Shown piece after piece: positions 1-16,353 of a stretch of DNA of 16,353 nucleotides. Positions within the stretch are counted from its first letter, which is position 1, and each line of letters starts with the position of its first letter. The position numbers and the translations under genes are program-made. The DNA comes from a virus (Duplodnaviria > Heunggongvirae > Uroviricota > Caudoviricetes), in the IMG/VR virus record IMGVR_UViG_2585427750_000025, positions 1-16,353 of that record; one strand, written 5' to 3'. The notes under the pieces were generated by a model, which had not been told where the DNA came from, did not search any database, and saw only the letters and a list, made by a program, of their open reading frames with translations.

Positions 1-1248
1 ATGGCACTGAATATTCCATTCAGAAATGCGTACTATCGTTTTGCATCCAGTTACTCATTTCTCTTTTTTATTTCCTGGTCGCTGTGGTGGTCGTTATACG
101 CTATTTGGCTGAAAGGACATCTAGGGTTGACAGGGACGGAATTAGGTACACTTTATTCGGTCAACCAGTTTACCAGCATTCTATTTATGATGTTCTACGG
201 CATCGTTCAGGATAAACTCGGTCTGAAGAAACCGCTCATCTGGTGTATGAGTTTCATCCTGGTCTTGACCGGACCGTTTATGATTTACGTTTATGAACCG
301 TTACTGCAAAGCAATTTTTCTGTAGGTCTAATTCTGGGGGCGCTATTTTTTGGCTTGGGGTATCTGGCGGGATGCGGTTTGCTTGATAGCTTCACCGAAA
401 AAATGGCGCGAAATTTTCATTTCGAATATGGAACAGCGCGCGCCTGGGGATCTTTTGGCTATGCTATTGGCGCGTTCTTTGCCGGCATATTTTTTAGTAT
501 CAGTCCCCATATCAACTTCTGGTTGGTCTCGCTATTTGGCGCTGTATTTATGATGATCAACATGCGTTTTAAAGATAAGGATCACCAGTGCGTAGCGGCA
601 GATGCGGGAGGGGTAAAAAAAGAGGATTTTATCGCAGTTTTCAAGGATCGAAACTTCTGGGTTTTCGTCATATTTATTGTGGGGACGTGGTCTTTCTATA
701 ACATTTTTGATCAACAACTTTTTCCTGTCTTTTATGCAGGTTTATTCGAATCACACGATGTAGGAACGCGCCTGTATGGTTATCTCAACTCATTCCAGGT
801 GGTACTCGAAGCGCTGTGCATGGCGATTATTCCTTTCTTTGTGAATCGGGTAGGGCCAAAAAATGCATTACTTATCGGAGTTGTGATTATGGCGTTGCGT
901 ATCCTTTCCTGCGCGCTGTTCGTTAACCCCTGGATTATTTCATTAGTGAAGTTGTTACATGCCATTGAGGTTCCACTTTGTGTCATATCCGTCTTCAAAT
1001 ACAGCGTGGCAAACTTTGATAAGCGCCTGTCGTCGACGATCTTTCTGATTGGTTTTCAAATTGCCAGTTCGCTTGGGATTGTGCTGCTTTCAACGCCGAC
1101 TGGGATACTCTTTGACCACGCAGGCTACCAGACAGTTTTCTTCGCAATTTCGGGTATTGTCTGCCTGATGTTGCTATTTGGCATTTTCTTCTTGAGTAAA
1201 AAACGCGAGCAAATAGTTATGGAAACGCCTGTACCTTCAGCAATATAG
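1..1248 (+). CDS. LacY-family MFS transporter (oligosaccharide:H+ symporter-like), 415 aa
   Basis: ORF starts with ATG at window position 1; hydrophobic multi-helix profile; whole-length resemblance to LacY-type permeases (DKLGLKK, FEYGxAR, GxKNALL motifs). Sampled GC in first 120 nt is 48/120, i.e. AT-rich. Confidence 0.8.
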   Translation: MALNIPFRNAYYRFASSYSFLFFISWSLWWSLYAIWLKGHLGLTGTELGTLYSVNQFTSILFMMFYGIVQDKLGLKKPLIWCMSFILVLTGPFMIYVYEPLLQSNFSVGLILGALFFGLGYLAGCGLLDSFTEKMARNFHFEYGTARAWGSFGYAIGAFFAGIFFSISPHINFWLVSLFGAVFMMINMRFKDKDHQCVAADAGGVKKEDFIAVFKDRNFWVFVIFIVGTWSFYNIFDQQLFPVFYAGLFESHDVGTRLYGYLNSFQVVLEALCMAIIPFFVNRVGPKNALLIGVVIMALRILSCALFVNPWIISLVKLLHAIEVPLCVISVFKYSVANFDKRLSSTIFLIGFQIASSLGIVLLSTPTGILFDHAGYQTVFFAISGIVCLMLLFGIFFLSKKREQIVMETPVPSAI

Positions 1249-1777
1249 ACGTAAACTTTTTCCGGTTGTTGTCGATAGCTCTATATCCCTCAACCGGAAA
1301 ATAATAATAGTAAAATGCTTAGCCCTGCTAATAATCGCCTAATCCAAACGCCTCATTCATGTTCTGGTACAGTCGCTCAAATGTACTTCAGATGCGCGGT
1401 TCGCTGATTTCCAGGACATTGTCGTCATTCAGTGACCTGTCCCGTGTATCACGGTCCTGCGAATTCATCAAGGAATGCATTGCGGAGTGAAGTATCGAGT
1501 CACGCCATATTTCGCTATCAGGATTCTGTGTGATGGTTACATCGCCCGGCTCAGGGCTGTTTAGTCATCAGCGCTTTCTGACAGTGCTGAGATTTCAACC
1601 TGTTGCAGTAAAAATGAGTAGATATAAGGCAAGTGTGCTGCCAAACCCATCTTTTACGGGGTGAAGGTAGATTTCGTTTGAAGGGTATCTGGTGTCCCCT
1701 GCAGACATCTACTTGAAGCGGCAGGGGATTGATTGGAATGGAGTTTTTTAGATGTGAGAAATATTTTACCCGCTATT

Positions 1778-1978
1778 TTACCCATTGGCGCGGCTTAAGA
1801 GCTTATTTTTGAATTCACAATGGTCACGATATAACCATCTTGCTCGCCCGTGGATAACTTTGGCTTTTGGCAGGTCGCCGGACTTAATCCGGTCATAGAT
1901 GAAGGTTTTACCGAAGCCAGTATCGGCCATGATGAATTTCAAATCAACCAGTGAATCAGGTTGTAGTTCGTGTTGCAT
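1778..1978 (-). CDS. AlpA/Xis-family excisionase or DNA-binding regulator, 66 aa
   Basis: Small basic protein with the LKFIxxxTGFxxxxIYxxIKxGxxP HTH signature of AlpA/Xis proteins; ATG at 1978 preceded by GGAGA; leftmost gene of the early-left operon. Confidence 0.6.
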   Translation of the reverse strand: MQHELQPDSLVDLKFIMADTGFGKTFIYDRIKSGDLPKAKVIHGRARWLYRDHCEFKNKLLSRANG

Positions 1979-2020
1979 GAGTGCTATCTCCGAATAGGGA
2001 ATCGAACCTGCAAATCAGGC

Positions 2021-2044
2021 AAGAAAAAGCCGCATTGATGCGGC
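2021..2044 (-). terminator. Putative rho-independent terminator between the accessory genes and xis
   Basis: Plus-strand stem gccgca (2029-2034) / tgcggc (2039-2044) with loop ttga; on the minus strand the stem is followed by TTTTTCTT (plus 2021-2028). Confidence 0.4.
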
Positions 2045-2101
2045 GATGGTAGGTCTGGATATCATTGAGCAATGAACAGGCCTCATCGAGTGTGAGGTGG
2101 G

Positions 2102-2446
2102 TTAGTCCTTGCGTAGCTCGCTGATTCTTCTGTAAGTCTCTGGTGCTTTGTTCCCATACGTCTTCATTTCAGACTTCAACAGAGCAACGAGTGAATCCCA
2201 TTCGTTGAGGATTCCTTTGAATGCCGGAACGCGCTTTGCAACCTTGTCGAATGAATCTCTGATTTCTGGAATCTGCTCAACAAGTGCAACGCATCGTCGG
2301 AAATCGGCTGCGTCATGTGGAGCACCGAAGCTATGACCATAGATATTCTTTTTCAGTCCACATGCGATTGAGGCAAGAGTTGCGCTACTGATGCCTACAT
2401 CGCCAGTCGATTGCAATTTCAAAACCTTCATAGCCAAATCTGACAT
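2102..2446 (-). CDS. Hypothetical phage protein, 114 aa
   Basis: Intact ORF, ATG at 2446 preceded by GGAG about 8 nt upstream; no family recognised. Confidence 0.5.
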   Translation of the reverse strand: MSDLAMKVLKLQSTGDVGISSATLASIACGLKKNIYGHSFGAPHDAADFRRCVALVEQIPEIRDSFDKVAKRVPAFKGILNEWDSLVALLKSEMKTYGNKAPETYRRISELRKD

Positions 2447-2526
2447 TTCTTGTCTCCATAAAACAAAACTCGCCGTAGCGAGTTCAGATAAAAGAAAACC
2501 ATCAATTGGTTAGGGTTTTTGTAATT

Positions 2527-2718
2527 CTACGAATTATGTTGTTTTTTAGCTTCAGCTTTCCATTCATCAAAGGCAGTGTCTTTGTTCATGGTGCTGATAT
2601 TGATCTTACGGTCAATATCATATACACGCCACTCACCGTTAGGCCTCTCTTCGCATCTAACTAAGTATGAATTGCCATTAATATCTATGCGTCTGTCTAT
2701 TTGCATGAACATTTTCAA
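2527..2718 (-). CDS. Hypothetical small protein, 63 aa (TTG start; alternative ATG at 2712)
   Basis: ORF begins with TTG at 2718, AGAGGA 8 nt upstream; AT-rich upstream region with a TATAAT-like hexamer. Confidence 0.4.
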   Translation of the reverse strand: MKMFMQIDRRIDINGNSYLVRCEERPNGEWRVYDIDRKINISTMNKDTAFDEWKAEAKKQHNS

Positions 2719-2781
2719 TTTTCGAATCCTCTTTAATATGCATTTTTTTTGCTATTTCAGTAGTTTACTATTGATGAGGCG

Positions 2782-2787
2782 TTATTA
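2782..2787 (-). promoter_or_regulatory. Candidate internal -10 element (TATAAT on minus strand) in AT-rich intergenic region
   Basis: Minus strand reads gtgtgTATAATaacg; only a weak -35 candidate at non-ideal spacing, so low confidence. Confidence 0.25.
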
Positions 2788-2831
2788 TACACACTTCATT
2801 AATGCAAGCATCTTTATGCTATGCTACTAAT

Positions 2832-3113
2832 TTAGCAATTGATATTCACCTTTATCGCGAACACCTTTACCGGTTTATCGCCGAAGTGGGGATGTGTGAT
2901 TGTCTTGATTTCATATCCGTCATACGGAACATCAATTCTGCGACTGAAGTCGTCGCGCTTCGGATATCCCTTTGTGATAATCAGGCGGTCATACTCCCGG
3001 AACATAATTCGCTTATTCCAGTAGTCATTACACAAGCGATACTCTTCCGTTTTCTCCCCGCGAATCATGGCATCGAAGTATTCACCTTTGACGGCAAGTT
3101 GCAGGTTAGCCAC
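2832..3113 (-). CDS. ASCH/DUF3850-like small protein, 93 aa
   Basis: N-terminal pattern (LQLAVKGEYFDAMIRGEKTEEYRLCND) resembles the ASCH-fold DUF3850 family common in phage accessory regions; assignment from recall only. Confidence 0.45.
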   Translation of the reverse strand: MANLQLAVKGEYFDAMIRGEKTEEYRLCNDYWNKRIMFREYDRLIITKGYPKRDDFSRRIDVPYDGYEIKTITHPHFGDKPVKVFAIKVNINC

Positions 3114-3393
3114 GACCTTCCTCCTTTGGCTTGTGAATTTGTATCGTCATGCCGCTTTGAGTGGTGACTACAATGACAGAACCAGGCTGAAGGCTGTTAA
3201 GATTGAATGCTTCGTAAAACGAATCCAATGCCAGTGCTTTTTTATTCTTTCGGTTCCACCAACGCCATCCCTTGCTACAGGCTACACTGACAATCCACTG
3301 TCCACTCCTGTAAGCCATATAAAACCAGATGAGCAAAACCTGAAGGAATGCTATCCAGTCAATGATCGTATATTTCGCGAAGGAGTCCATCAC
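3106..3393 (-). CDS. Hypothetical protein with N-terminal hydrophobic segment, 95 aa
   Basis: ATG at 3393 preceded by GGAGGTG (5 nt spacer); start overlaps the stop of the upstream Lar-like gene (ATGA); hydrophobic stretch IIDWIAFLQVLLIWFYMAY. Confidence 0.55.
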   Translation of the reverse strand: MMDSFAKYTIIDWIAFLQVLLIWFYMAYRSGQWIVSVACSKGWRWWNRKNKKALALDSFYEAFNLNSLQPGSVIVVTTQSGMTIQIHKPKEEGRG

Positions 3394-3686
3394 TTCACCT
3401 CCTGCGGAGTAGCCTTTACAAGCACTGGTGTAAATCCATCTTCATTAAGGTTATGAATATAGACTTCTGTTCTCCTGCGCTCTTCAACGTTTAATATTGT
3501 TTCTGGATCATAAACCCATACTTTCATTCGACTATTCCATGAAGAAATCGCTTCAGATTTAGTTCGTTTTTCTGGTCCTTGGGCACCACATTTGCATGAC
3601 ACATAGCACATTTTCCCTCTGATACTGAATGAGTATCCGATGTTAAGCACAGTGGAACCACAGAATGGGCAGCGATATAGATTCAT
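3390..3686 (-). CDS. Lar-family restriction-alleviation-like protein with C-terminal extension, 98 aa
   Basis: N-terminal zinc-ribbon pattern CPFCG ... CxC ... AIxxWNSR typical of the Lar family; AGGTGG RBS upstream of ATG at 3686. Confidence 0.55.
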   Translation of the reverse strand: MNLYRCPFCGSTVLNIGYSFSIRGKMCYVSCKCGAQGPEKRTKSEAISSWNSRMKVWVYDPETILNVEERRRTEVYIHNLNEDGFTPVLVKATPQEVK

Positions 3687-4303
3687 AAATCATCCACCTT
3701 AGGCGCAGCTGAGACAGCAACATTCCAGAACTCAGAAAACATATTGTATGCACCAGATAGATTGGAAGTGGCATACCCTCCAAGCTCACTTCTAATCTGA
3801 ACGGCTCTCATCATTTCCGGGGTTAACTCCTTCGGCACCATAACCCAACCATCCGGAGTTACCGGAGAGTTGCCGGGTTCTTTAATGTGCAAGCGAGGCT
3901 CACCATCTTTTGGCTCAGGCCACTGGCGCTCCATGTTGATCTTCAATTTATCTTCCATAGCAGCGGTAATTTCAGCATCGCTGATGCCAGCACGGCGCTG
4001 TGCATCCCACAACAGAAACTGCATATCAGCCCACTCGCTAAGATCGTCTGGTTCGGCTGCGGCTTCCAGTGCCTCTTTTGAGAGATGTTTCAGCGGACCA
4101 ATGGGGCCAACGCAGCCAAATGTGGAGTCAGACCATTTGGCATGCTCGTGGCGAATCTGTTCGCGTTCCAGTGATGCCAGTGCGATACGCAGGGCATCCA
4201 GGATATTCCCCTGGTAATCATCAAGCCCGAAAGGAAGCTCATCACGAACGCTTTCATAATCGTTGATAGCCTGCTGCAGCCATTCTCTTGTGATAGTGCT
4301 CAT
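3683..4303 (-). CDS. Hypothetical phage protein, 206 aa (possibly DUF550 / MazG-like N-terminal domain)
   Basis: Strong RBS AAGGAGAGG before ATG at 4303; ATGA overlap with upstream gene; domain assignment tentative. Confidence 0.5.
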   Translation of the reverse strand: MSTITREWLQQAINDYESVRDELPFGLDDYQGNILDALRIALASLEREQIRHEHAKWSDSTFGCVGPIGPLKHLSKEALEAAAEPDDLSEWADMQFLLWDAQRRAGISDAEITAAMEDKLKINMERQWPEPKDGEPRLHIKEPGNSPVTPDGWVMVPKELTPEMMRAVQIRSELGGYATSNLSGAYNMFSEFWNVAVSAAPKVDDL

Positions 4304-4926
4304 GATGCCTCTCCTTTACCTGCTTCGGTGACGTTTATTCCAGCGTTGTGCAGTGCCTCAAGAACCTGATGCTGCCTGTAAACCATTTCAGTGTGGTAAG
4401 GCTCGTCAAAATCGACGCGATGCAACATGCTATAGCATTGCGGAAGCACAACCTCCCGCAACTCCAGCTCAGCAATGCGCTTCTCTGCGGCTTCCAGCTT
4501 CTCGCGCATATCGTCAACGTACTCGACCAGAGAACCGCCAGCAGGAATTTCGCACTCCTCGACCAGTTGGAAGTAGATATCAGCTGCGGCCCGTGTGTTG
4601 CTATGCCTAGCGTCGCCCATCTCACCTTCACGAAGAGCATCGCGTTCGGCGGTAAGATTGGCTATTTTGCTGTCTTTGCCTTCCAGCTCAACGCGCAGCT
4701 TCCCTACCGTTAGCGCAATTTCCTCGTTCTCCTGGTCACGGCGTTTGATGTATTGCTGGTTTCTTTCCAGTTCATCCAACAATGCCAGCGCGATATCTGG
4801 CGAAAAGTGCTTCATAAAATCGTTAAGCGCATTAATTCGCTGATCGAAAGGCATTACAGGTGCTTCACCAGCAATTTTTGTTTTTTCAGCGATTTCACGA
4901 AGCTTTTGATAATCAATCTTGCTCAC
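4300..4926 (-). CDS. Ead/Ea22-like family protein, 208 aa (GTG start)
   Basis: N-terminus MSKIDYQKLREIAEK and coiled-coil-like middle resemble lambda Ea22-like proteins; GTG at 4926 preceded by AAGGAGG (6 nt spacer). Confidence 0.6.
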   Translation of the reverse strand: MSKIDYQKLREIAEKTKIAGEAPVMPFDQRINALNDFMKHFSPDIALALLDELERNQQYIKRRDQENEEIALTVGKLRVELEGKDSKIANLTAERDALREGEMGDARHSNTRAAADIYFQLVEECEIPAGGSLVEYVDDMREKLEAAEKRIAELELREVVLPQCYSMLHRVDFDEPYHTEMVYRQHQVLEALHNAGINVTEAGKGEAS

Positions 4927-5060
4927 TGGTTGCCTCCTTTGCGAAGCTGGTTGGCGAACAAACGTACACTAGACGCTTCACTGCGTAGAAACTTAACGGC
5001 ATAATCAAAACCACCTCGTTCTGCGTCGTCTGCTCCGTTGTCGAGGTTATCTGCGTACAT
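4923..5060 (-). CDS. Small hypothetical ORF, 45 aa (internal ATG of the 92-aa track ORF)
   Basis: ATG at 5060 lies 14 nt inside the end of the upstream gene; its TGA stop overlaps the GTG start of the Ea22-like gene (GTGA). Fits the coupling pattern of the operon but is short. Confidence 0.3.
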   Translation of the reverse strand: MYADNLDNGADDAERGGFDYAVKFLRSEASSVRLFANQLRKGGNQ

Positions 5061-5406
5061 CTCTACCCCCCTGCGCCCGTACTTCAGCCAGGAAAGCATC
5101 GGTGGCTGGTGTTTCAACACGGATGCTGTCGCGCAAGATGAAAAATGCATCAAGCATTCCAGTCTCCGGCACTTCATCCTGATGCTTCTCATACGCATCA
5201 AGAGCCTTCATCATCTCAGGTCCGAATGGTTGAGGGTGCGCAGCCTTCAGCCCCGCATTCTCCGCCGCCAGCGCCGCGCACTTGGCCTCCGCTTCAGCAA
5301 ATTTACGCACCAGATATTCAGCGTTTGTTTCGTTAACCTTTAAATCACTTGGGATGCATTTACCTTTCAGAAAACCATCCATCTCAATTAGTGTCATTTG
5401 TTTCAT
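5047..5406 (-). CDS. Hypothetical phage protein, 119 aa
   Basis: Intact ORF, ATG at 5406 overlapping the stop of the upstream 54-aa ORF (ATGA). Confidence 0.5.
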
Positions 5407-5567
5407 TTCTTCCCACTCCGCAACATCGCATTCAGATATTTGTTGTCATTAACAGAACCGAAACTATTTCTCTTAAGCAATTCCTCTCTCGATGGCATTG
5501 GCTTTACGCGTTGGCGAATAATCATTTCTGCCGGAAGAATGCCGGGATTGTATGCAAGTCCTCTCAT
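5403..5567 (-). CDS. Small hypothetical ORF, 54 aa (below the ORF-track length cutoff)
   Basis: Hand translation: [54 protein letters not shown]; GGAGAG RBS upstream; ATGA overlaps at both ends exactly fill the gap between flanking genes. Confidence 0.35.
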
Positions 5568-5854
5568 GATTTACTCTCCACGAACTGGTCAACAGCCATG
5601 CTAAGTGACACACCTAAAGTCTCGATATGTTGCTGAATATCCTGTAGCGTCTGCGCCTGAGATAACAGGATTTCACGGTTGCATAACTCTTTAACCAGAT
5701 GCTCAAACTTGCTGTAATAACCGATACGGCTTAGTGTTTCTTTCCCTGCATTCTCGCCTTCTTTGATAATTCCTCTTTCGCTAAGAATCAGATCGTGTTT
5801 TGTTCCGGTAATAACGTATTTTCCGAGGTTGATGTTTAGCTTCATTGTTTTCAT
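5564..5854 (-). CDS. Hypothetical phage protein, 96 aa (start moved to internal ATG)
   Basis: ATG at 5854 (MKTMKLNIN...) is preceded by GAGGAA with 6-nt spacer and lies 11 nt after the stop of the upstream gene; the longer 147-aa track ORF would overlap that gene. Confidence 0.5.
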
Positions 5855-5864
5855 TGTTAATTCC

Positions 5865-6161
5865 TCAGTCATTACTGATAGCGCCATAGCGTGAGCGGTA
5901 ATTACGCAGGCGCGGGTCGATATATTCAGGGAAGTGGGTATATGTGGCTTTGCGGAATGGTCGGATTGATGTCTGGTAAATTCGCTCGCGTTCTTCTTTC
6001 TCTGCAAGCCATATGCAGTGGCGAAACTCCTTTTCCTCTTTCGTTTCCTGCGGTAGAGACATTATCCGATCGTAGTTTTTTCTGAATTTATCCAGCACCT
6101 CCGATACGGAATTGCCGGAACAGCGGCGCGCGTCGTCCGCACCATATAGAGGCGCTGGCAT
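5865..6161 (-). CDS. Hypothetical phage protein, 98 aa
   Basis: ATG at 6161 preceded by AGGAGA (5 nt spacer), 16 nt downstream of the exonuclease stop. Confidence 0.5.
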   Translation of the reverse strand: MPAPLYGADDARRCSGNSVSEVLDKFRKNYDRIMSLPQETKEEKEFRHCIWLAEKEERERIYQTSIRPFRKATYTHFPEYIDPRLRNYRSRYGAISND

Positions 6162-6177
6162 GGTTTTCTCCTGTTGA

Positions 6178-6726
6178 TTATTTAGCTAACTTTTTCCAGA
6201 TCGCTGAAACGTATTTGGCTTGGTGGATTGCATCATCAAGCGCGTTGTGGCGAGTTCCTTTGAATGGCATATCTCGCTTAGGGTCTAATCCTATTGCCTT
6301 CCCAAGTTCGACGATTGTTCTTACGTCGCGGTCATTCCACCACTGCCACGGAACTGGCTGCCCTGTCAGCGAATAAGTGTTGCGGAGAATAACGCAGTCA
6401 AATGATGCTCCATTCCCCCAAACCTGAACGAGTTTGTGGTTGGCGTTCTTTATGATGAATTCAGATAACCATGAAAGAGCCGTTGAAAGCTCTTGAGTGT
6501 TGCTGGTTAGCGATTTTCTGGCTTCTTCACTCTGTTCCATCCACCATAAAATCGTTGAAGCGTCAGGACGCGCCCGATATCGCATTGATGACTCAAGCGA
6601 GATATTTACCGAGAACTCTTCTCCTGTTTCTCCGGTATTCGGGTCAAAGAATACCGCCCCAATAGAAATAACTGGTGCGTATGGCCCGTTGCCCATTGTT
6701 TCAAGGTCAACCATCAAGTGATTCAT
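6178..6726 (-). CDS. DnaQ-like (DEDDh) 3'-5' exonuclease, 182 aa
   Basis: Exo motif I (MVDLETMG) and Exo III-like H-x4-D (HNALDDAIH) with intervening acidic residues; AAGGA RBS; immediately downstream of ssb. Confidence 0.7.
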   Translation of the reverse strand: MNHLMVDLETMGNGPYAPVISIGAVFFDPNTGETGEEFSVNISLESSMRYRARPDASTILWWMEQSEEARKSLTSNTQELSTALSWLSEFIIKNANHKLVQVWGNGASFDCVILRNTYSLTGQPVPWQWWNDRDVRTIVELGKAIGLDPKRDMPFKGTRHNALDDAIHQAKYVSAIWKKLAK

Positions 6727-6734
6727 GTAAGTCC

Positions 6735-7250
6735 TTAAATTGCGTAAATAGCGTGACGAGGGAAAGGGAGAGTTACTGGTGCAAAGGGGATATCGTCGTC
6801 AAAATCCATAGGTGGTTCGCTGTGATTTACCTGCTTCTGAGACTGCTGTTTTTGTTGCTGACCGTTATTTCGCTGAGGTGAAGACTGTTCATTGCCTCCT
6901 TGCTTGCCACCAAGCATTTGCATGGTTCCACCAACGCCCACGATAACTTCGGTAGTGAACCGATCCTGTCCACTTTGATCCTGCCATTTTCTTGTCCGCA
7001 ATTTGCCTTCAAGATAAACCTCTGAGCCTTTTCGCAGATATTCGCTGGCAATTTCTGCCAGTTTCCCGCTCATTACCACTCGGTGCCACTCCGTCTGCTC
7101 CTTTTGCTCTCCAGTTTGCTTATCACGCCATTGTTCTGACGTAGCAACTGTAAGGTTTGCAAATGCCGTTCCTGATGGTGAATATCTGATTTCTGGATCA
7201 TGCCCAAGGCGACCAATAATGATCACCTTATTTACGCCTCTGCTTGCCAT
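6735..7250 (-). CDS. ssb: Single-stranded DNA-binding protein (phage SSB), 171 aa, with a 15-residue extension after the DDDIPF motif
   Basis: N-terminal OB-fold region closely resembles E. coli SSB ([10 protein letters not shown]..., [15 protein letters not shown]); Gly/Gln-rich linker; [10 protein letters not shown] motif present but followed by [15 protein letters not shown] before the stop. Confidence 0.85.
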
Positions 7251-7958
7251 TTATGCCGCCTGTTTTAGTTCATTAACTCTGATGTTCATTACCTGAACGC
7301 ATTTAGCCTGCGCCTCCTCGTTGCCAGCCATTAATTGCCAGTCACGCTGATAACGCTCGATGAGTTTTTTCTTGTCAGTTTCTGTTGACGCATAATCGCT
7401 GAAGTCTTTCAGGATTTGTTCGCAGTCAACCGATGGAGATTTCTGGTTGGTATTTTCTGGTGATGGTTTGTTATCTGATGCTGGGATTGCCCATCCCGGC
7501 AGCGATGGAGGGAGCCAGTAAAATCCTGTTCCATCCTTCAGTTTTGCCCTGTGCCACCCCTGCTTTTTATCGAGAGATGTTTGTGCGAAACCTTCCTCAA
7601 GGTTATACAGATACCGACCGATTCCCCACTGAACGGCAGCGCGCTTCATTGCACCGGAACGACCACCTTTGACGGCTTCTACCTGCGTGTTTTCAGCAGC
7701 ATCCCATTTGGTTACCCATTCGGAATCAATCTTTATTGATATGCCGCATTCAACGCCGCCGTTGTTGGGAATATCGCGGTATTCATTGCGCCATCCTGCT
7801 TTGCCGCAAACATCGTCCAGGCGTTTCATGATTGCCCGGTTCGTGACATAAGCCAGCACCATAGCCCACACTTTGCCATCGCGTGTTTTACCGCTTTGCT
7901 GTATTCGCCATTCGATATCTTCAGGGCTGAATGGCTCATCGAATTTATTCAAATCCAT
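7251..7958 (-). CDS. Single-strand annealing protein, Rad52/Sak-like (tentative family), 235 aa
   Basis: In the bet/erf position directly upstream of ssb (stop TAA abuts the ssb ATG); N-terminal region resembles Rad52/22-family annealing proteins; GAGGTG RBS before ATG at 7958. Confidence 0.5.
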   Translation of the reverse strand: MDLNKFDEPFSPEDIEWRIQQSGKTRDGKVWAMVLAYVTNRAIMKRLDDVCGKAGWRNEYRDIPNNGGVECGISIKIDSEWVTKWDAAENTQVEAVKGGRSGAMKRAAVQWGIGRYLYNLEEGFAQTSLDKKQGWHRAKLKDGTGFYWLPPSLPGWAIPASDNKPSPENTNQKSPSVDCEQILKDFSDYASTETDKKKLIERYQRDWQLMAGNEEAQAKCVQVMNIRVNELKQAA

Positions 7959-8057
7959 AATTCACCTCAGAATGGACACGGCCCAAGGAAATAACGCTGA
8001 TTTAATACTTCGACTCGGGACAAATTAAGGCATACCCGCATTCCTTCGCGGTCACCA

Positions 8058-8216
8058 TTATGGCGATACCAGAGAGCTTTCTGCGTGTACATGCGTCTCT
8101 GTAACTTGCTCTCCTTCACTGTGGTTGCAAGTGACATGAATATCTCCTTCGTTACCGATTAATTCTTTCATCTGACGAATGAATTCTTCGTCTGACCAGT
8201 TATCTGTAAAACTCAT
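8058..8216 (-). CDS. Small hypothetical protein, 52 aa, in the kil position
   Basis: ATG at 8216 overlaps the CIII-like stop (ATGA); sits between cIII and the recombination genes as kil does in lambda; no sequence similarity to lambda Kil recognised. Confidence 0.35.
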   Translation of the reverse strand: MSFTDNWSDEEFIRQMKELIGNEGDIHVTCNHSEGEQVTETHVHAESSLVSP

Positions 8217-8383
8217 GGACGGCCTTGTTGTTTCAAAATATCCCAAAGCTTTTCGAGCAAACTTTTCATTCTTGGTTGTTTAAAGTCTGCTCCGGTTAAA
8301 ATATTTTTTCGTGAATGCTGTACCGATAAAATCGGGTTGAAAGGGCGAACCAATGCCGCCCCTGCAATAGCGAACTGTTGCAT
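8213..8383 (-). CDS. cIII: CIII-like protein (candidate FtsH/HflB inhibitor), 56 aa
   Basis: Internal ATG at 8383 with AAGGAG RBS (6 nt spacer); product MQQFAIAGAAL...LLEKLWDILKQQGRP resembles lambda CIII (MQYAIAG ... LLERI...ILNQPG) and occupies the cIII position. Confidence 0.6.
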   Translation of the reverse strand: MQQFAIAGAALVRPFNPILSVQHSRKNILTGADFKQPRMKSLLEKLWDILKQQGRP

Positions 8384-8445
8384 AGGATGCTCCTTCTGTT
8401 TGAATGCATAACGAAAACGCCTCGAGTGAAGCGTTATTGGTATGC

Positions 8446-8473
8446 ATATAAAAAGGCCCTCACACTGGAGGGC
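8446..8473 (-). terminator. Putative rho-independent terminator upstream of cIII in the pL operon
   Basis: Stem gccctc (8456-8461) / gagggc (8468-8473), loop acactg; followed on the minus strand by TTTTTATA. Confidence 0.4.
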
Positions 8474-8591
8474 AAAGAAGATTTCCAATAATCAGAACAA
8501 GTCGGCTCCTGTTTAGTTACGAGCGACATTGCTCCGTGTATTCACTCGTTGGAATGAATACACAGTGCAGTGTTTATTCTGTTGTTTATGC

Positions 8592-8617
8592 CAAAAATAA
8601 AGGCCGACTATTCGGCC
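8592..8617 (-). terminator. Putative rho-independent terminator (tL1-like position) overlapping the stop codon of the post-N gene
   Basis: Stem ggccga (8602-8607) / tcggcc (8612-8617), loop ctat; followed on the minus strand by TTTATTTTTG; the TAG stop of the 107-aa gene lies inside the hairpin. Confidence 0.45.
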
Positions 8618-8931
8618 TTATCTACATTCCTGAACCAAACGCAGATCGGACCGTCTTCTGTATCGTGAATCGAACCGACAAACCATCCTTCTCCATCTGG
8701 CATGCTTGGCTCCCATCCACTGATGTTTTGATTCCCATCTTCAAAATACGCGTCAATTACCGTTTGATTGTTGTCGTTTTCCATTTCAACAATTGATGAT
8801 TCAATGCCATGCTGCTTGCAGAAAGATCTGAACTCATCAGCTGAAATTACCTCTCTATCCCCAAACAGGTTGGCGTATTCTGGGTGCGTCCAGTAGCCAT
8901 CCTCGCTTCGCTCTACTACTAATGCTTCCAT
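8608..8931 (-). CDS. Highly acidic hypothetical protein, 107 aa, immediately downstream of N
   Basis: ATG at 8931 with GAGGTGAG RBS, 8 nt after the N stop; roughly 24 Asp/Glu against 6 Lys/Arg by manual count. Confidence 0.55.
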   Translation of the reverse strand: MEALVVERSEDGYWTHPEYANLFGDREVISADEFRSFCKQHGIESSIVEMENDNNQTVIDAYFEDGNQNISGWEPSMPDGEGWFVGSIHDTEDGPICVWFRNVDKAE

Positions 8932-8939
8932 ATCTCACC

Positions 8940-9266
8940 TCAAATAAGTGGTTTGCTGCCTAATTTCATTTTCTGGCGACCAACACAAGTCACACCCATT
9001 TCACTGCGTGGCTTGCTGTACCATGTGCGCTGATTCTTGCGCTCAATACGTTGCAGGTTGCTTTCAATCTGTTCGTGGTATTCAGCCAGCGCCGTAAGGT
9101 CTATCGGATTCAGTGCGCTTTCTACTCGTGATTTCGGTTTGCGATTCAGCGAGAGAATAGGGCGGTTAACTGGCTTTGCGCTTACCCCAACCAACAGGGG
9201 ATTTGCTGCTTTCCATTGAGCCTGTTTTTCTGCGCGACGTTCGCGGCGGCGTGTTTGTGCATCCAT
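8940..9266 (-). CDS. N: Antitermination protein N (lambda-type), 108 aa
   Basis: Product from internal ATG at 9266 begins MDAQTRRRERRAEKQAQWKAANPLLVGVSAKPVNRPILSLNRKPKSRVESALNPIDLT, matching lambda N including the arginine-rich boxB-binding motif. Confidence 0.9.
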   Translation of the reverse strand: MDAQTRRRERRAEKQAQWKAANPLLVGVSAKPVNRPILSLNRKPKSRVESALNPIDLTALAEYHEQIESNLQRIERKNQRTWYSKPRSEMGVTCVGRQKMKLGSKPLI

Positions 9267-9438
9267 CTGGATTCTCCTGTCAGTTAGCTTTGGTGGTGTG
9301 GTAGGTGGGAGACCCATTTCGACCTGCTTCGGCCGACTTCAATTCGGCAATAGTTCCGCAGGCCTCGCCGCTTTACGTGCGACATATTCCCATCCATGAA
9401 CCCTTCACCACACCCCAAAGCCTTCTGCTTTGAATGCT

Positions 9439-9469
9439 GCCCTTCTTCAGGGCTTAATTTTTAAGAGCA
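9439..9469 (-). promoter_or_regulatory. nutL site (boxA GCTCTTAA and boxB GCCCTGAAGAAGGGC)
   Basis: Minus strand reads GCTCTTAAAAATTAAGCCCTGAAGAAGGGCAGC, the lambda nutL sequence; boxB is a 5-bp stem with GAAGA loop. Confidence 0.85.
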
Positions 9470-9508
9470 TCACCTTCATGGTGGTCAGTGCGTCCTGCTG
9501 ATGGCTTA

Positions 9509-9581
9509 AAATTACAAGAAAGATTGTATGTTGTAAACAAGAAATATTGTAAAAAGGGGCGTGAAAAACAAACTCCATTGT
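9509..9581 (-). promoter_or_regulatory. pL promoter with three 434-type operators (OL, ACAA-N6-TTGT)
   Basis: 14-bp operators at 9514-9527, 9537-9550 and 9568-9581; minus-strand -35 TTTACA (9532-9537), 17-bp spacer, -10 TAATTT (9509-9514); lambda-like leader ATCAGCAGGACGCACTGACC starts near 9502. Confidence 0.65.
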
Positions 9582-9630
9582 TTTTAAATGAAAAATAGTT
9601 TGTTTTTGGTTATCGAGATTGAGGTGGGGA

Positions 9631-10983
<1,353 letters not shown>

Positions 10984-10991
10984 GACATTTC

Positions 10992-11023
10992 CGCTCTTAC
11001 ACATCCCAGCCCTGAAAAAGGGC
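10992..11023 (+). promoter_or_regulatory. nutR site (boxA CGCTCTTAC and boxB GCCCTGAAAAAGGGC)
   Basis: Lambda nutR boxA at 10992-11000 and boxB at 11009-11023; the downstream leader up to the cII ATG is near-identical to lambda (tR1 region). Confidence 0.9.
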
Positions 11024-11102
11024 ATCAAATTAAACCACACCTATGGTGTATGCATTTATTTGCATACATTCAATCAATTGTTATCTAAGGAAATACTTAC
11101 AT

Positions 11103-11381
11103 ATGCAACTTACAAGTACTCGCAAGAAAGCGAATGCAATTACAAGCAACATCCTAAATCGAATTGCTGTACGTGGTCAGCGAAAGGTTGCTGATGCATT
11201 AGGGATCAATGAATCGCAAATTTCGCGATGGAAAGACAGCTTTATCCCAAAGATGGCCATGCTTCTGGCTGTGCTGGAGTGGGGTGTTGAAGACGAGGAA
11301 TTAGCGGAGCTGGCAAAGAAAGTAGCCATGGTGCTGACAAAAGAAAAGCCTCAAGACTGCGGCAACAGTTTTGAGGCCTGA
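11103..11381 (+). CDS. cII: CII-like transcriptional activator, 92 aa
   Basis: ATG at 11103 in the lambda cII context (TAAGGAAATACTTACATATG); product shares the HTH and SQISRWK ... MLLAVLEWGV core with lambda CII but diverges at both ends. Confidence 0.75.
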   Translation: MQLTSTRKKANAITSNILNRIAVRGQRKVADALGINESQISRWKDSFIPKMAMLLAVLEWGVEDEELAELAKKVAMVLTKEKPQDCGNSFEA

Positions 11382-11415
11382 TGTAGAAAGACTGGATCAA
11401 TCCACAGGAGTAATT

Positions 11416-11577
11416 ATGACAAAACGTCGTAAGAAATACCAGGAAAAAGAAGAGATTCGACACCCTGATTCACCTGAGGGATTAGTGGTAGCCGCAGCAA
11501 ATAACAGGGCGTTCGCAGAGCGCCTTGTTGGTGTTTACAGACTAGCCAAAGCAGGAGTGAAACATGGGCGTCGTTAA
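11416..11577 (+). CDS. Small basic ORF in the lambda O start context, 53 aa (separate gene or frameshifted initiator N-terminus)
   Basis: ATG at 11416 preceded by CACAGGAGTAATT, almost the same context as the lambda O start; overlaps the initiator ORF by 14 nt in another frame. Confidence 0.3.
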   Translation: MTKRRKKYQEKEEIRHPDSPEGLVVAAANNRAFAERLVGVYRLAKAGVKHGRR

Positions 11578-12454
11578 GTTAGCTGATTACAGGCATAACC
11601 CTGTAAAACATCAGGAGGCATCCAGTATGGGGTATGTCTCTATACACCGCCAGTTTATGGACAGCAGGCTCTATAAGGACTCTCAGGCAGTACATCTTTG
11701 GCTTCACTTAATCCTCAAGGCTAATCACGAATCTACTGTCGTCAATACGGATATCGGTCCGATAACTGTTGATCGCGGTCAGATGATAACTGGACGCCCG
11801 TCGCTGGTCAGAGAAACATTCATCCCCGACAACAAAGTTCGGAGCTTATTACGGACTTTTGAGTCGAAAGGGATGCTTAATATTTCCTCGATGGGGAAGA
11901 AATTTAGCCTGTTTACAATCGTTAAATATGACGATTTTCAGGCAAAAAATTGTCCAACGGTTGTCCAACGGTTGTCCAACGCAAACACCAGTAATGGCGC
12001 GGCTCTCAGCGGAGATTGTCCAACGGTTGTCCAACGGTTGTCCATAAACAATAATATAAATAATATCTCTAATACTGACGTATTAGAGAGTGCCACAGCA
12101 GACAAAAAGTCTGACAAGAAAAAACCTTCCGTTAGCTGTCAGGATGTTGTCGATGCTTACCACGAAATCCTTCCTGAAGCGCCAAGAATCCGCGCACTGA
12201 ATGACAAGCGTAAAAACCAGATCCGAACGTTCTGGCGCAAAGCCGGAGTGATAACCCGCCAGCTTGACGGGCATGGGTTCACGATGCAGGACTGGAGAAA
12301 TTATTTGAGCTACGTAGGAGAAAATTGCCGATGGATGTTCGAAGAGCGCCCAAACCATCAACGCGGAACTGTCTGGCACAAAAAGGGATTTGATTTCCTG
12401 CTTAACGATAATACCTACCTGAAAGTTCGTGAGGGTGAACACGATGACCGATAA
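11564..12454 (+). CDS. Replication initiator (O-like), 296 aa, with origin iterons inside the gene; alternative start at 11627
   Basis: Occupies the O position after cII; N-terminal DNA-binding-like domain, low-complexity linker encoded by the iterons, C-terminal domain; stop overlaps the helicase start by 11 nt. Confidence 0.6.
   Translation: MGVVKLADYRHNPVKHQEASSMGYVSIHRQFMDSRLYKDSQAVHLWLHLILKANHESTVVNTDIGPITVDRGQMITGRPSLVRETFIPDNKVRSLLRTFESKGMLNISSMGKKFSLFTIVKYDDFQAKNCPTVVQRLSNANTSNGAALSGDCPTVVQRLSINNNINNISNTDVLESATADKKSDKKKPSVSCQDVVDAYHEILPEAPRIRALNDKRKNQIRTFWRKAGVITRQLDGHGFTMQDWRNYLSYVGENCRWMFEERPNHQRGTVWHKKGFDFLLNDNTYLKVREGEHDDR
11950..12048 (+). repeat. Origin iterons: six copies of TTGTCCAACGG in two triplets (11950-11982 and 12016-12048)
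   Basis: Direct 11-bp repeats (third copy of each set slightly degenerate) separated by about 33 bp, inside the initiator gene; encode the repeated peptide CPTVVQRLS. Confidence 0.7.
12049..12090 (+). promoter_or_regulatory. AT-rich stretch next to the iterons (candidate DNA unwinding element)
   Basis: aaacaataatataaataatatctctaatactgacgtatta immediately right of the iterons, as in lambda ori. Confidence 0.5.
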
Positions 12455-13880
12455 TTTTTATGCGCCGCCCCATAGCATCGAGGCAGAGCAGGCGGTGATT
12501 GGTGGATTGCTTCTGGATGATGACAGCAGTGAGCGCGTCCAGAAAGTTCTGGCGATGCTGAAGCCTGATTCATTTTACAGCCGACCACACAAAATCCTTT
12601 TCGAAGAAATAACCAGAATGCACCGGGAGCAAAAGCCAGTAGATGGCCTGACGCTTTTCGATGAACTGGATCGCAAATCGTTAACGGTGTCTGTTGGCGG
12701 TTTTGCTTATATCGCTGAGATCGCAAAGAACACGCCAAGCGCCGCAAACATCGTTGCCTATGCAATGCAGGTTCGCGAAACCGCAATGGAACGCTACGCC
12801 ATCAACCGCATGACTGAAGCGACGGAATTGCTCTATTCCCGCAACGGAATGACTGCAACGCAGAAGTACGAAGCTATTCAGGCGATTTTCACGCAACTGA
12901 CAGACCATGCAAAAACCGGATCGCGTCGCGGCCTTCGCTCATTTGGTGAGGTAATGGAAGACTGGGTTAGCGACCTTGAGAAGCGATTTGACCCGTCAGG
13001 CGAACAACGAGGAATGAGCACAGGGATCCCATCGCTGGACAGGATGCTGTCACCGAAAGGTCTGGTGAAAGGCTCTCTGTTTGTCATTGGCGCTCGCCCT
13101 AAGATGGGGAAAACGACGCTATACAGCCAGATGGCAATCAACTGCGCAGTGCATGAGAAAAAGCCCGCTCTGATGTTCAGCCTTGAAATGCCCGGTGACC
13201 AGATACTGGAAAAACTGGTAGGACAGAAGTCAGGTGTTAACCCGAATATTTTTTACCTTCCGGCGACAAATGACGCTGATGACGGCTATCAGGGTGATTA
13301 CGATGGTGACTTCAACAGGGCGATCGAAACAGCCAATCGCTTGAGTGAAATCGACATGCTTTACATCGACGACACGCCGGGATTATCTCTGGCTCAAATC
13401 GTCAGCGAAAGCCGTCGAATCAAGCGAGAAAAAGGATGTGTTGGCATGATTCTGGTCGATTACCTGACACTAATGACCGCTGAGAAGGCCGATCGCAACG
13501 ACCTTGCTTACGGCATGATCACCAAAGGACTGAAGAACCTTGCCAAAGAGCTTGATTGCGTTGTTGTGCTTCTGACGCAGCTTAACCGCGCACTGGAAAG
13601 CCGAACCAATAAACGCCCATTACCAAGTGACTCACGAGATACAGGGCAGATTGAACAGGATTGCGATTATTGGGTTGGGATCCATCGTGAAGGCGCTTTT
13701 GATGACAGTGTTCCACCTGGTGAAACCGAACTAATCCTTCGTCTCAATCGTCATGGCAATACCGGCACGGTGTATTGCATTCAGGCAAATGGCGCTATTT
13801 ATGACACAGACCAACAGTCTGCTGAAATGCGCCGACGTGAACGCGAGGAACCGCAGTCCAAGAAGAAAGGAGGATTCTGA
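12444..13880 (+). CDS. DnaB-family replicative DNA helicase (P22 gene 12-like), 478 aa
   Basis: N-terminal DnaB-like domain (HSIEAEQAVIGGLLLD), Walker A GARPKMGKTT, Walker B-like MILVDYLTLM; ATG at 12444 with GAGGGTG RBS. Confidence 0.85.
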   Translation: MTDNFYAPPHSIEAEQAVIGGLLLDDDSSERVQKVLAMLKPDSFYSRPHKILFEEITRMHREQKPVDGLTLFDELDRKSLTVSVGGFAYIAEIAKNTPSAANIVAYAMQVRETAMERYAINRMTEATELLYSRNGMTATQKYEAIQAIFTQLTDHAKTGSRRGLRSFGEVMEDWVSDLEKRFDPSGEQRGMSTGIPSLDRMLSPKGLVKGSLFVIGARPKMGKTTLYSQMAINCAVHEKKPALMFSLEMPGDQILEKLVGQKSGVNPNIFYLPATNDADDGYQGDYDGDFNRAIETANRLSEIDMLYIDDTPGLSLAQIVSESRRIKREKGCVGMILVDYLTLMTAEKADRNDLAYGMITKGLKNLAKELDCVVVLLTQLNRALESRTNKRPLPSDSRDTGQIEQDCDYWVGIHREGAFDDSVPPGETELILRLNRHGNTGTVYCIQANGAIYDTDQQSAEMRRREREEPQSKKKGGF

Positions 13881-13907
13881 TGACCATCTACATCACTGAG
13901 CTTGTAA

Positions 13908-13940
13908 CAGGCCTGCTGGTAATCGCAGGCCTTTTTATTT
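13908..13940 (+). terminator. Rho-independent terminator downstream of the helicase gene (tR2-like position)
   Basis: Perfect 8-bp stem aggcctgc (13909-13916) / gcaggcct (13925-13932), 8-nt loop, followed by TTTTTATTT. Confidence 0.7.
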
Positions 13941-13955
13941 GGGGGAGGGTAAATC

Positions 13956-14162
13956 GTGGTTGAGTTTATGCTCGTCGCACTCAAATTCGTTGGCGTTGGA
14001 TGGATTCTTCTGACGTTTTTTATTTTTCTGCATAGCTACATTCGCCTTGTGAATGACGGTAAAGATCCATGGTATACGTTGTTTGGCGCTGCATTTGTCT
14101 GGGTGATTATCGGTGTTATGCCTGTCGCTGTAGCAAAAATGGCGTGGCGTTTTGTGAGTTGA
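13956..14162 (+). CDS. Small predicted membrane protein, 68 aa (GTG start; alternative ATG at 13968)
   Basis: Two hydrophobic segments; GGAGGG RBS 6 nt upstream of GTG at 13956; first gene after the terminator. Confidence 0.45.
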   Translation: MVEFMLVALKFVGVGWILLTFFIFLHSYIRLVNDGKDPWYTLFGAAFVWVIIGVMPVAVAKMAWRFVS

Positions 14163-14179
14163 ACTGAGGGTAAGTATCG

Positions 14180-14446
14180 ATGGACGAATCAAGAAAGCAG
14201 TTTGAAGAATGGTTTGAAAATTACACCGGATGTGATCCTAAAAATAAAATATACGCCAATATGGTTGAGATGTATTGGCAAGCGTGGCAGGCATCGCGAG
14301 CAGCTATCGAGATTGAGTGTCCTGGAAAAAGAGAGCGTGAGGCATTTTCTACCGATTTCGAGGATGGGGTCACATTTGGTTATAACGACGCAATTAGTGA
14401 ATGCGAAGGACGGATTCGCGCTGCTGGAGTCAAAGTGAAGGGGTGA
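14180..14446 (+). CDS. Hypothetical nin-region protein, paralog A, 88 aa
   Basis: Begins MDESRKQFEE and shares WQASRAAIE and IRAAG motifs with paralog B; GAGGG RBS 9 nt upstream. Confidence 0.5.
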   Translation: MDESRKQFEEWFENYTGCDPKNKIYANMVEMYWQAWQASRAAIEIECPGKREREAFSTDFEDGVTFGYNDAISECEGRIRAAGVKVKG

Positions 14447-14448
14447 GC

Positions 14449-14634
14449 ATGAGTCGACGAAGTAGCTTTTTGGGGTTTGTAATATTCCTGTTCTGCACTG
14501 GTTACATCGTAATCTGGTCAATTTCGAACATTGACCGTGGCGGGGAATATCTCATTGTAATGTTCTTTCCTTTGTTTCTTGGGTGGTACGCCGCAAGGTT
14601 GCTGGAAGAATGGGGTTACAGGCATAAAAAATAA
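14449..14634 (+). CDS. Small predicted membrane protein, 61 aa (internal ATG of the 77-aa track ORF)
   Basis: ATG at 14449, 2 nt after the paralog A stop, preceded by GAAGGGG; two hydrophobic segments and a basic C-terminus. Confidence 0.4.
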   Translation: MSRRSSFLGFVIFLFCTGYIVIWSISNIDRGGEYLIVMFFPLFLGWYAARLLEEWGYRHKK

Positions 14635-14693
14635 AGGAGTGTTCAGTGAAGCAAACCCTTTTTTATTGGATTAAGAGCGAGTGGTAAGTACCG

Positions 14694-14876
14694 ATGGTAA
14701 ATGCATTTATTTGTAGTTTATTTCTTGTCGCGATTTTTCATGGATTCCTTCTGATGATGAGTTTTGTTCTCTGGAATAATGGATATCGCATATTGGGAGT
14801 AGGTTTTGTTTTACGGTTTTCAGTTGTCTGCGCGTTGCTACCGATAATTATGGCGACTATCAAATATTATTGGTAA
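14694..14876 (+). CDS. Small predicted membrane protein, 60 aa
   Basis: Two hydrophobic segments; start lies in the junction motif GGTAAGTACCGATGG also found before paralog A; weak RBS. Confidence 0.35.
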   Translation: MVNAFICSLFLVAIFHGFLLMMSFVLWNNGYRILGVGFVLRFSVVCALLPIIMATIKYYW

Positions 14877-14903
14877 CCCAAAAAATCATCGATGGAGAGT
14901 GAT

Positions 14904-15260
14904 ATGGACGAATCAAGAAAGCAGTTTGAGGAATACGTTGCCAAAAAATTGAGATTACCATTCGAGATGATAACCGAGGCAAGAAATGGTGATAGGTACT
15001 TCGCATTTTCAAGCATGGATATTCGTCACTCCTTAAATGAGTGGTGGACTTTATGGCAGGCATCGCGAGCAGCTATTGAACTGGATATCGACTGGCCAGA
15101 ATCGAATGACGACTTTTGGAAAGATGGTGAAGAAGGTGCTTATGCGATGGGTTATGAGGATGGGCGTGACAAAACGGTAATTGCAGTAATGAAAGCTATC
15201 AGAGCCGCTGGAATTAAAGAGAAGAATTTCGATGAAGCAAACAATCTTCCTCCGAAGTAA
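14904..15260 (+). CDS. Hypothetical nin-region protein, paralog B, 118 aa (start at second ATG)
   Basis: ATG at 14904 preceded by GGAGAG; first 26 nt identical to paralog A; the upstream in-frame ATG at 14892 lacks an RBS. Confidence 0.5.
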   Translation: MDESRKQFEEYVAKKLRLPFEMITEARNGDRYFAFSSMDIRHSLNEWWTLWQASRAAIELDIDWPESNDDFWKDGEEGAYAMGYEDGRDKTVIAVMKAIRAAGIKEKNFDEANNLPPK

Positions 15261-15642
15261 GCAACAACAGCAAGCCGCAATAAATGCCATCCTCGCAACA
15301 CCACTCGATAAAGACAAGCCAGTCACCATCCGCATTACTGACTACAAGCGCAACCTTGACCAGAACGCAAAATTTCACGCGATGCTGGCGGATATCGCTC
15401 GTCAGGTTCAATGGTGCGGCAAATGGTTAAAACCGGAACAATGGAAGGTTTTGTTGATCAGCGGTCATGCAGTGGCAACAAAACAGGAAGCTGATGTTTT
15501 GCCCGGGCTTGAAGGCGAATACGTCAACATTCGCGAAAGTAGCGCGCAGATGAGTGTGAAGCGTATGGCAAGTCTGATTGAGTACACGACAGCATGGGCT
15601 ATTGGTCAGGGTGTCAGATTTACCGACAGGAGGTACGAATGA
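15232..15642 (+). CDS. ninB: NinB (Orf-family recombination mediator), 136 aa
   Basis: Similar to lambda NinB over its length (MKxxxFxxRS ... AINAI ... RNLDQN ... QVxWxGxWL); overlaps paralog B by 29 nt. Confidence 0.8.
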
Positions 15643-15815
15643 GACGACAGCGACGAAGTTTCACCGACATCATCTGCGAAAACTGCAAATACCTTCCAAC
15701 GAAACGCTCCAGAAATAAACGCAAGCCAATCCCAAAAGAATCTGACGTAAAAACCTTCAACTACACGGCTCACCTGTGGGATATCCGGTGGCTAAGACAT
15801 CGTGCGAGGAAATGA
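15639..15815 (+). CDS. ninE: NinE-like small arginine-rich protein, 58 aa
   Basis: ATG at 15639 overlaps the ninB stop (ATGA); product [58 protein letters not shown] resembles the lambda nin-region small basic protein; NinE versus NinD naming is from memory. Confidence 0.55.
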
Positions 15816-15817
15816 CA

Positions 15818-16177
15818 ATGGATTATTCACAGTTAAGTGATTTTGAAATTAACGTGGCGGTATTCGAAGCCATTCATAACGGATCGCCGGATTACAAAGA
15901 AGGTGAGAATGGCGATATGGTGTTTGTCTCATTTGAGGGAGACATTGTAAACGGAGACGCAGTTGAAGTAGAAGTTGAGCGCGGATCCTTTAACCCATGC
16001 GCAAACCCAGCAGACTCATGGCCGATTATTGAAAAATACAGGATTAGCATTATCAATCTCGATGAAGACGAGTGGGGTGCACGCGGTGTGGCCTACTGTA
16101 AATCTAAGCGAGCTATACATGAAAATCCCCTTCGCGCCGCCATGATTGTCTTTCTCATGATGCAGAGAATCCAATAA
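15818..16177 (+). CDS. Hypothetical nin-region protein, 119 aa, acidic (start moved to ATG at 15818)
   Basis: AGGA RBS about 7 nt upstream of ATG at 15818 (MDYSQLSDFEIN...); sits between the NinE-like and NinF genes. Confidence 0.5.
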   Translation: MDYSQLSDFEINVAVFEAIHNGSPDYKEGENGDMVFVSFEGDIVNGDAVEVEVERGSFNPCANPADSWPIIEKYRISIINLDEDEWGARGVAYCKSKRAIHENPLRAAMIVFLMMQRIQ

Positions 16178-16353
16178 TGCTTAGCCCATCCCAATCCCTT
16201 CAATACCAGAAAGAAAGCGTCGAGCGAGCTTTAACGTGCGCTAACTGCGGTCAGAAGCTGCATGTGCTGGAAGTTCACGTGTGTGAGCACTGCTGTGCAG
16301 AACTGATGAGCGATCCGAATAGCTCAATGTACGAGGAAGAAGACGATGAGTGA
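16177..16353 (+). CDS. ninF: NinF-like small Cys-rich protein, 58 aa (below the ORF-track cutoff)
   Basis: Hand translation MLSPSQSLQYQKESVERALTCANCGQKLHVLEVHVCEHCCAELMSDPNSSMYEEEDDE with TGA as the last three bases of the window; matches the lambda NinF pattern; ATG overlaps the upstream TAA (TAATG). Confidence 0.6.
   Translation: MLSPSQSLQYQKESVERALTCANCGQKLHVLEVHVCEHCCAELMSDPNSSMYEEEDDE

Follow-up and report, generated by a model that had tools for sequence, protein, structure and literature searches.

The stretch between the sucrose permease gene cscB and the excisionase gene torI (1249-1777) is very probably the attR of a lambdoid prophage of the HK620/Sf6/KplE1 type, integrated in the 3' end of argW beside the csc sucrose locus of its host. 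The integrase gene, intS, is in all probability located next to argW at attL, some 25-46 kb distant, with none expected in the gap and none decayed there. Positions are those of the window, the whole 16,353-nucleotide stretch of DNA that was analysed, and the features discussed are collected in Table 1. In lambda, attP lies beyond int, so that int and xis are adjacent at one end of the prophage and are co-transcribed. An earlier note on this DNA had started from that arrangement, expecting int immediately beyond xis; the premise holds for lambda, as the textbooks have it, and fails for the KplE1/HK620/Sf6 module.

Table 1 Features at and around the cscB-torI gap (positions in the window; strand where assigned)
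Feature	Position	Strand	Description
cscB, sucrose permease	1-1248	+	Pfam LacY_symp, E 1e-193; chromosomal (csc island)
cscB-to-torI gap	1249-1777		host spacer 1249-1689 and prophage end 1690-1777
native cscB-argW intergenic spacer	1249-1689		441 bp; bacterial DNA outside the prophage
hairpin TTCCGGTTG/CAACCGGAA	1258-1268 / 1291-1301		11-bp perfect stem, 22-nt loop, just 3' of the cscB stop
decayed DUF4942 gene fragment	1337-1623	-	about residues 38-151 of 281; in-frame stop and frameshift
attR core TGGTGTCCCCTGCAG	1690-1704		reverse complement of the 3'-terminal 15 nt of tRNA-Arg argW
8-nt inverted repeat TCCCCTGC/GCAGGGGA	1695-1702 / 1721-1728		one arm in the core, the other 18 nt into the P arm
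attR P arm	1705-1802		enters the last torI codons; ends at the reverse complement of primer attR-IHF2
candidate IHF-like site AATCAATCCCCTG	1722-1734	-	one mismatch to WATCAANNNNTTR
direct repeat TATTTTACCC, two copies	1762-1771 and 1774-1783		second copy overlaps the torI stop codon (1778-1780)
torI	1778-1978	-	excisionase (recombination directionality factor), also inhibits the TorR response regulator
putative torI promoter region	1985-2023	-	homologous to the HK620 'phage integration' promoter (1664-1702, offset +321)
GGAATCGAACCTGCAA	1998-2013		identical over 16 nt to the T-arm of argW (nt 15-30 of its 3' end)
putative cII site	2010-2022		HK620 feature 1689-1701 at offset +321
terminator-like hairpin GCCGCATCAATGCGGC with T-run	2029-2044	-	pattern match only

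The largest open reading frames between the end of cscB and the 66-aa minus-strand frame of torI are of 43-44 aa, in agreement with the earlier note, which had reported none of at least 60 aa between xis and the transporter gene. One of them, a 43-aa frame at 1654-1785 on the minus strand, crosses the att core and is the integration-split counterpart of HK620 hkaB and Sf6 gene 17, which are 46 aa long and cross the attP core; with a 3' part that now comes from the host, it is unlikely to be a real gene. The Pfam and NCBIfam profiles gave no match to the 66-aa protein, and its identity was settled by comparison with the PDB and with E. coli K-12: it is matched along its entire length by PDB entry 1z4h, 'Tor inhibition protein' (E 7e-43), and is identical at 66/66 residues to TorI of the K-12 element KplE1/CPS-53. 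The homologous gene carries the name torI in RefSeq in hundreds of genomes. TorI is the recombination directionality factor (RDF) of KplE1/CPS-53, HK620 and Sf6 (PMC3509656).

The core in the window corresponds to 15/16 nt of the published KplE1 core, which is 16 nt long, CTGCAGGGGACACCAT (PMC2951348). It occurs once in the window, and a second copy is found at argW in strain TW10590. No tRNA was found in the window by ARAGORN because attR keeps just 15 nt of argW, and a search of the window against Rfam at a permissive threshold returned a chance-level match alone (RAGATH-25, E 0.84). The mismatched sixteenth position of the core is 1689, a C here and an A in K-12 and the phages. This base is host-derived, and the core is of 15 rather than 16 nt because the csc+ flank, cscB and its spacer, stands in place of the dsdC flank of K-12. 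In csc+ hosts attL and attR have 15 nt in common, not 16. The C at 1689 places the strand exchange to the right of that position, and on these sequences the exact prophage boundary can be set, to the base, at 1690.

Three independent comparisons, by alignment, with an empty site and with free phages, agree on this boundary. For the first, the window was aligned with the attP of HK620, the attP of Sf6, the attR of K-12 and the attR of TW10590. The five sequences are nearly identical from the core rightward; leftward they fall into three flanks with no relation to one another, namely the csc spacer, the phage P' arm and the dsdC side of K-12. The non-csc genome H119 matches the window from 1690 onward only, and 372 of the 5426 complete E. 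coli genomes have this very junction of cscB-side attR and torI. The junction is attR, not attL.

The comparison with an empty site that the earlier note had proposed could be made directly. In FORC_069, cscB is followed by 441 bp and an intact argW, with no prophage, and window positions 1249-1704 are identical to this unoccupied site at 456/456 positions. A synthetic attB, made by joining window 1400-1704 to the remainder of argW and the yfdC flank of TW10590, was contiguous in 1415 of the 5426 genomes, often at 100% identity. A synthetic attP, made from the phage arm of the TW10590 attL and window 1705-2100, was likewise contiguous in the free phage IME10 (100% coverage, 97.5% identity) and, at 93% coverage, in HK620, Sf6, HK633, N7 and others; the identity of the reconstructed attP to HK620, Sf6 and IME10 was 97-98%. 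The gap holds a clean att core, with the integrase in all probability elsewhere in the element, an outcome that the earlier note had named as speaking against its own reading.

The P arm differs from HK620, Sf6 and K-12 at two positions, 1720 and 1742; the G at 1720 is shared with TW10590, whereas none of the other four aligned sequences has the A at 1742. The sequence of primer attR-IHF2, CTCTTAAGCCGCGCCAATGG, and a 135-bp attR substrate that works in vitro have been published (PMC3509656). The reverse complement of the primer is found at 1783-1802, so that this substrate ends within torI. The two direct copies of TATTTTACCC, the second over the xis stop, are where the earlier note had placed them. 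They are invariant in the alignment of attP and attR, and the segment 1762-1784 that contains them corresponds, at offset +321, to 1441-1463 of HK620, annotated in GenBank as 'repeat_region attP'. The pair shares an GGGTAAAA/TAAA motif with the arm-type sites of IntS, and its reverse complement is GGGTAAAATA, a motif repeated on the P' arm between intS and argW (copies GGGTAAAAAT and GGGTAAAATT; inverted, TATTTTATCC and CTTTTTACCC). A TAAA motif common to the P' arm-type sites of IntS has been reported (PMC2951348). On the strength of the HK620 annotation, the motif shared with the P' sites and that report, the TATTTTACCC pair is best read as the putative IntS arm-type sites of the P arm, as the earlier note had guessed.

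Chance levels for the repeats were estimated by shuffling the mononucleotides of 1249-1800 in 300 rounds: 2% of the shuffles contained a direct repeat of 10 nt with its copies within 50 nt, 19% an inverted repeat of at least 8 nt and 0% one of at least 11 nt. In the same segment the repeat finder returned exactly three repeats, the TATTTTACCC pair, an 11-nt inverted repeat and an 8-nt inverted repeat, so that the description of the gap as 'repeat-rich' was overstated. Both inverted repeats had been correctly located and given too short a length: the one noted as CCCCTGC/GCAGGGG, 7 bp, is of 8 nt, and the one noted as 9 bp at 1260-1268/1291-1299 is of 11 nt. The left arm of the 8-nt repeat lies inside the att core, in the acceptor/T-stem of argW, and the repeat is kept within attP; by itself it is not beyond chance. 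Its interpretation as a pair of core-type sites is unsupported, given the 18-nt spacing and the chance frequency.

The candidate site at 1722-1734 is likely, from its match to WATCAANNNNTTR, to be an IHF site. The plus-strand T-run at 1744-1749 is a minus-strand A-tract 5' of it, and position 1742 adjoins this run. An IHF site on attR is said to have been described by Panis in Virology in 2010. The excision reaction in vitro includes purified IHF (PMC2951348).

On the host side, the same cscB and the same 441-bp downstream spacer are present in prophage-free genomes. The hairpin at 1258-1301 is stable (dG -17.3 kcal/mol, z -3.6) and is part of the csc locus. It was considered as the terminator of cscB and rejected as a canonical intrinsic one: there is no U-tract, the sequence after the stem is A-rich on both strands and a terminator scan was negative. 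The spacer also carries the fragment of a DUF4942 gene, detected by tblastn with E values of 2e-19 and 0.003 and labelled by PGAP as a partial pseudogene in some genomes. Intact paralogues, 72-77% identical at the DNA level, are the terminal genes of CP4-type islands with cbtA/yeeU toxin-antitoxin modules. As the fragment also occurs in prophage-free csc+ strains, it belongs to an earlier element at argW and not to the present prophage; it is the fossil of an older CP4-type island.

The position of the integrase follows from the gene order in the free phages. HK620 has int at 50-1207 on the minus strand, attP repeats at 1207-1253, the attP core at 1368-1383, the further attP repeat at 1441-1463 and hkaC, which is torI, at 1457-1657; the order in Sf6 is identical, and in IME10, as in these two phages, attP lies between int and torI. 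Because attP is situated between int and the RDF gene, integration parts the two genes. This is what is found in the chromosomes. TW10590 has dsdA, dsdX', a LacI-family regulator gene, cscA, a kinase gene, cscB, attR and torI, followed by about 46 kb of prophage, intS, argW and yfdC, and its IntS is 99% identical to that of K-12. In K-12 the order is argW, intS and, at the other end, torI, pawZ (a 15-nt argW fragment) and dsdC. In TW10590 and TW14425, the two junction genomes checked, and in K-12, intS is beside argW at the far prophage end, and 1893 of the 5426 complete E. coli genomes have the intS-attL-argW junction. The window itself ends inside the early region, and this evidence on the far end is that of relatives, not of the source prophage. 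The integrase 'supplied elsewhere' that had been offered as one possibility in the earlier note is thus located, in TW10590 and K-12, next to argW.

The remainder of the window is early region. The early-left genes, which begin with N (8940-9317), lie without exception on the minus strand, and torI is the last of them in the leftward direction. N, an S24/HTH CI-like repressor, CII (11043-11381), a DnaB-like helicase and NinB are encoded. Genes for Lar-like, dATP/dGTP pyrophosphohydrolase, Ead/Ea22, Rv2179c-like 3'-5' exonuclease, SSB and Rad52-like proteins are also present. The region from 2100 to 16353 is highly mosaic: none of the 5426 complete E. coli genomes covers at least 80% of the window, the best covering 75% at 96.6% identity.

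Three other readings of the gap were weighed. The reading put forward in the earlier note, that it is a degraded integrase gene or a degraded attL with the prophage stranded and perhaps excision-defective, draws on the lack of any frame of at least 60 aa across 530 bp beside an excisionase gene and on the fact that the gap does contain a decayed gene. That gene, however, is the DUF4942 fragment, outside the prophage and in DNA 100% identical to empty sites. Neither an integrase nor a remnant of one lies directly beyond xis in 1249-1777: a tblastn search with IntS, of the kind that the earlier note had called for, gave no remnant anywhere in the window, the best match (E 0.8) being outside the gap, and a six-frame translation of the gap gave the DUF4942 fragment and no integrase. 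The phage arm, moreover, is that of the functional HK620 attP and K-12 attR except at 1720 and 1742. Decay of an integrase or of attL in the gap is therefore highly improbable. Still harder to credit is the suggestion that cscB and its spacer are phage cargo, the true prophage end being to the left of the window. The transporter gene does directly abut phage genes, but cscB, spacer, argW and yfdC are contiguous without a prophage in the 1415 genomes mentioned above, the neighbours on the left of cscB are cscK, cscA, a LacI-family regulator gene, dsdX' and dsdA, and phage and K-12 homology breaks off precisely at 1690.

A normal attR is also compatible with loss or inactivation of intS or attL at the far end, which would leave the prophage unable to excise alone. 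That end is outside the window, no complete genome covering at least 80% of the window offers this exact mosaic for comparison, and prophages at argW are often decayed: KplE1 of K-12 is a 10-kb remnant, and the TW10590 prophage, the closest relative, has two IS3-family insertions and several pseudogenes (lysis protein, antirepressor), so that this copy is decaying although it keeps intact its intS, its torI and its two att sites. Against this, the K-12 remnant itself retains intS and excises (PMC2951348), intS adjoins argW in both of the junction genomes checked, and the early region of the window, with N, the repressor, CII, the helicase and NinB, looks intact. A prophage that has lost its integrase function is accordingly considered improbable, and a normal attR with intS at attL remains the preferred reading.

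The region upstream of torI has a promoter and a cII site that are putative, being assigned by homology to HK620. The leftward early operon has its last frame at 2102-2446, and the terminator-like hairpin at 2029-2044 separates this operon from the torI promoter region; because of it, torI might be expressed only with N antitermination or from the gene's own promoter. Within the promoter region is the 16-nt copy of the argW T-arm, GGAATCGAACCTGCAA. It directly adjoins the core in argW and has the core's orientation in the window, so that the phage carries the 30 3'-terminal nt of argW as two halves, nt 1-15 at 1690-1704 and nt 15-30 at 1998-2013, which bracket exactly the P arm and torI (293 bp). 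In 200 shuffles chance gave no match to the argW 3' end longer than 13 nt, as against the 16 nt seen. The 16-mer is invariant in K-12, HK620, Sf6 and TW10590 and overlaps the HK620-annotated cII half-site by 4 nt. It was not found in Klebsiella phage Chronis and, being missing from this relative, is inessential to the module. It may be the relic of a cassette of RDF gene and arm that entered a once-longer, tRNA-homologous attP, or else a site through which IntS controls torI, but an explanation of either kind is unlikely. In the second case it could be a putative IntS core-type site, resembling half of attB, in the torI promoter, and IntS could then control torI.

Excision of such a prophage would be expected to proceed as follows. 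IntS would be made at a low level, self-repressed, from its own promoter inside attL. Expression of TorI would then trigger excision, the supply of TorI, and not co-expression of intS and torI, being what matters. TorI would bind attL at five sites, IntS would bridge arm and core sites and IHF would bend attR, and recombination of attL with attR would give attP and attB. Self-repression of IntS at the attL promoter, TorI-dependent excision and the five TorI sites on attL have been described for the conserved module of attL, attR, intS and torI, together with an in vitro excision assay in which excision dependent on IntS, TorI and IHF was shown with K-12 and HK620 substrates (PMC2951348, PMC3509656). 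What the present analysis itself establishes is sequence identity and gene order; from that published KplE1 work we infer protein binding and excision competence for the present prophage.

Comparison with known systems places the window in this family. KplE1 (CPS-53) of K-12 has the same TorI, the same att core and a P arm with the same arm-site pair, and agrees in gene order, with torI at attR and, in the relatives of the window, intS at attL beside argW. It differs in retaining 10 kb without a repressor, whereas the early region of the window is fully lambdoid, and in its host flank, which is dsdC in place of cscB and the spacer. In HK620, Sf6 and IME10 (Lederbergvirus; P22-like) the reconstructed attP is contiguous, and the attP core, attP repeats, hkaC and pI promoter of HK620 map directly onto the window; unlike it, these are free phages with attP unsplit, and their early genes beyond about 2040 are mosaic and different. 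Klebsiella phage vB_Kpn_Chronis has the same order of int, arm repeats, core, arm repeats and xis at about 78% identity, but the edges of its core differ and the region upstream of its xis is unrelated and has no argW-like 16-mer. Lambda shares with the IntS/TorI module a heterobivalent tyrosine integrase acting on core and arm sites, a small winged-helix RDF and IHF (PMC2951348). In contrast to lambda, the IntS/TorI module has attP between the two genes, an autoregulated intS promoter in attL and an RDF that binds attL (PMC2951348, PMC3509656). With a TorI-type RDF, core, P arm and bacterial flank all present, the window fits, as far as sequence can tell, the argW module of the KplE1/HK620 type. 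The literature already explains the gap: it is the attR of a recombination module that has been described before.

The DUF4942 fossil in the argW-csc region agrees with argW being a hot spot of integration. The absence of an integrase gene next to an excisionase gene is no proof of prophage decay, and annotation pipelines and readers alike should seek int at the opposite, tRNA-proximal end of such a prophage. The argW-targeting HK620/Sf6/KplE1 family is widespread, and in it int and the RDF gene are apart by design.
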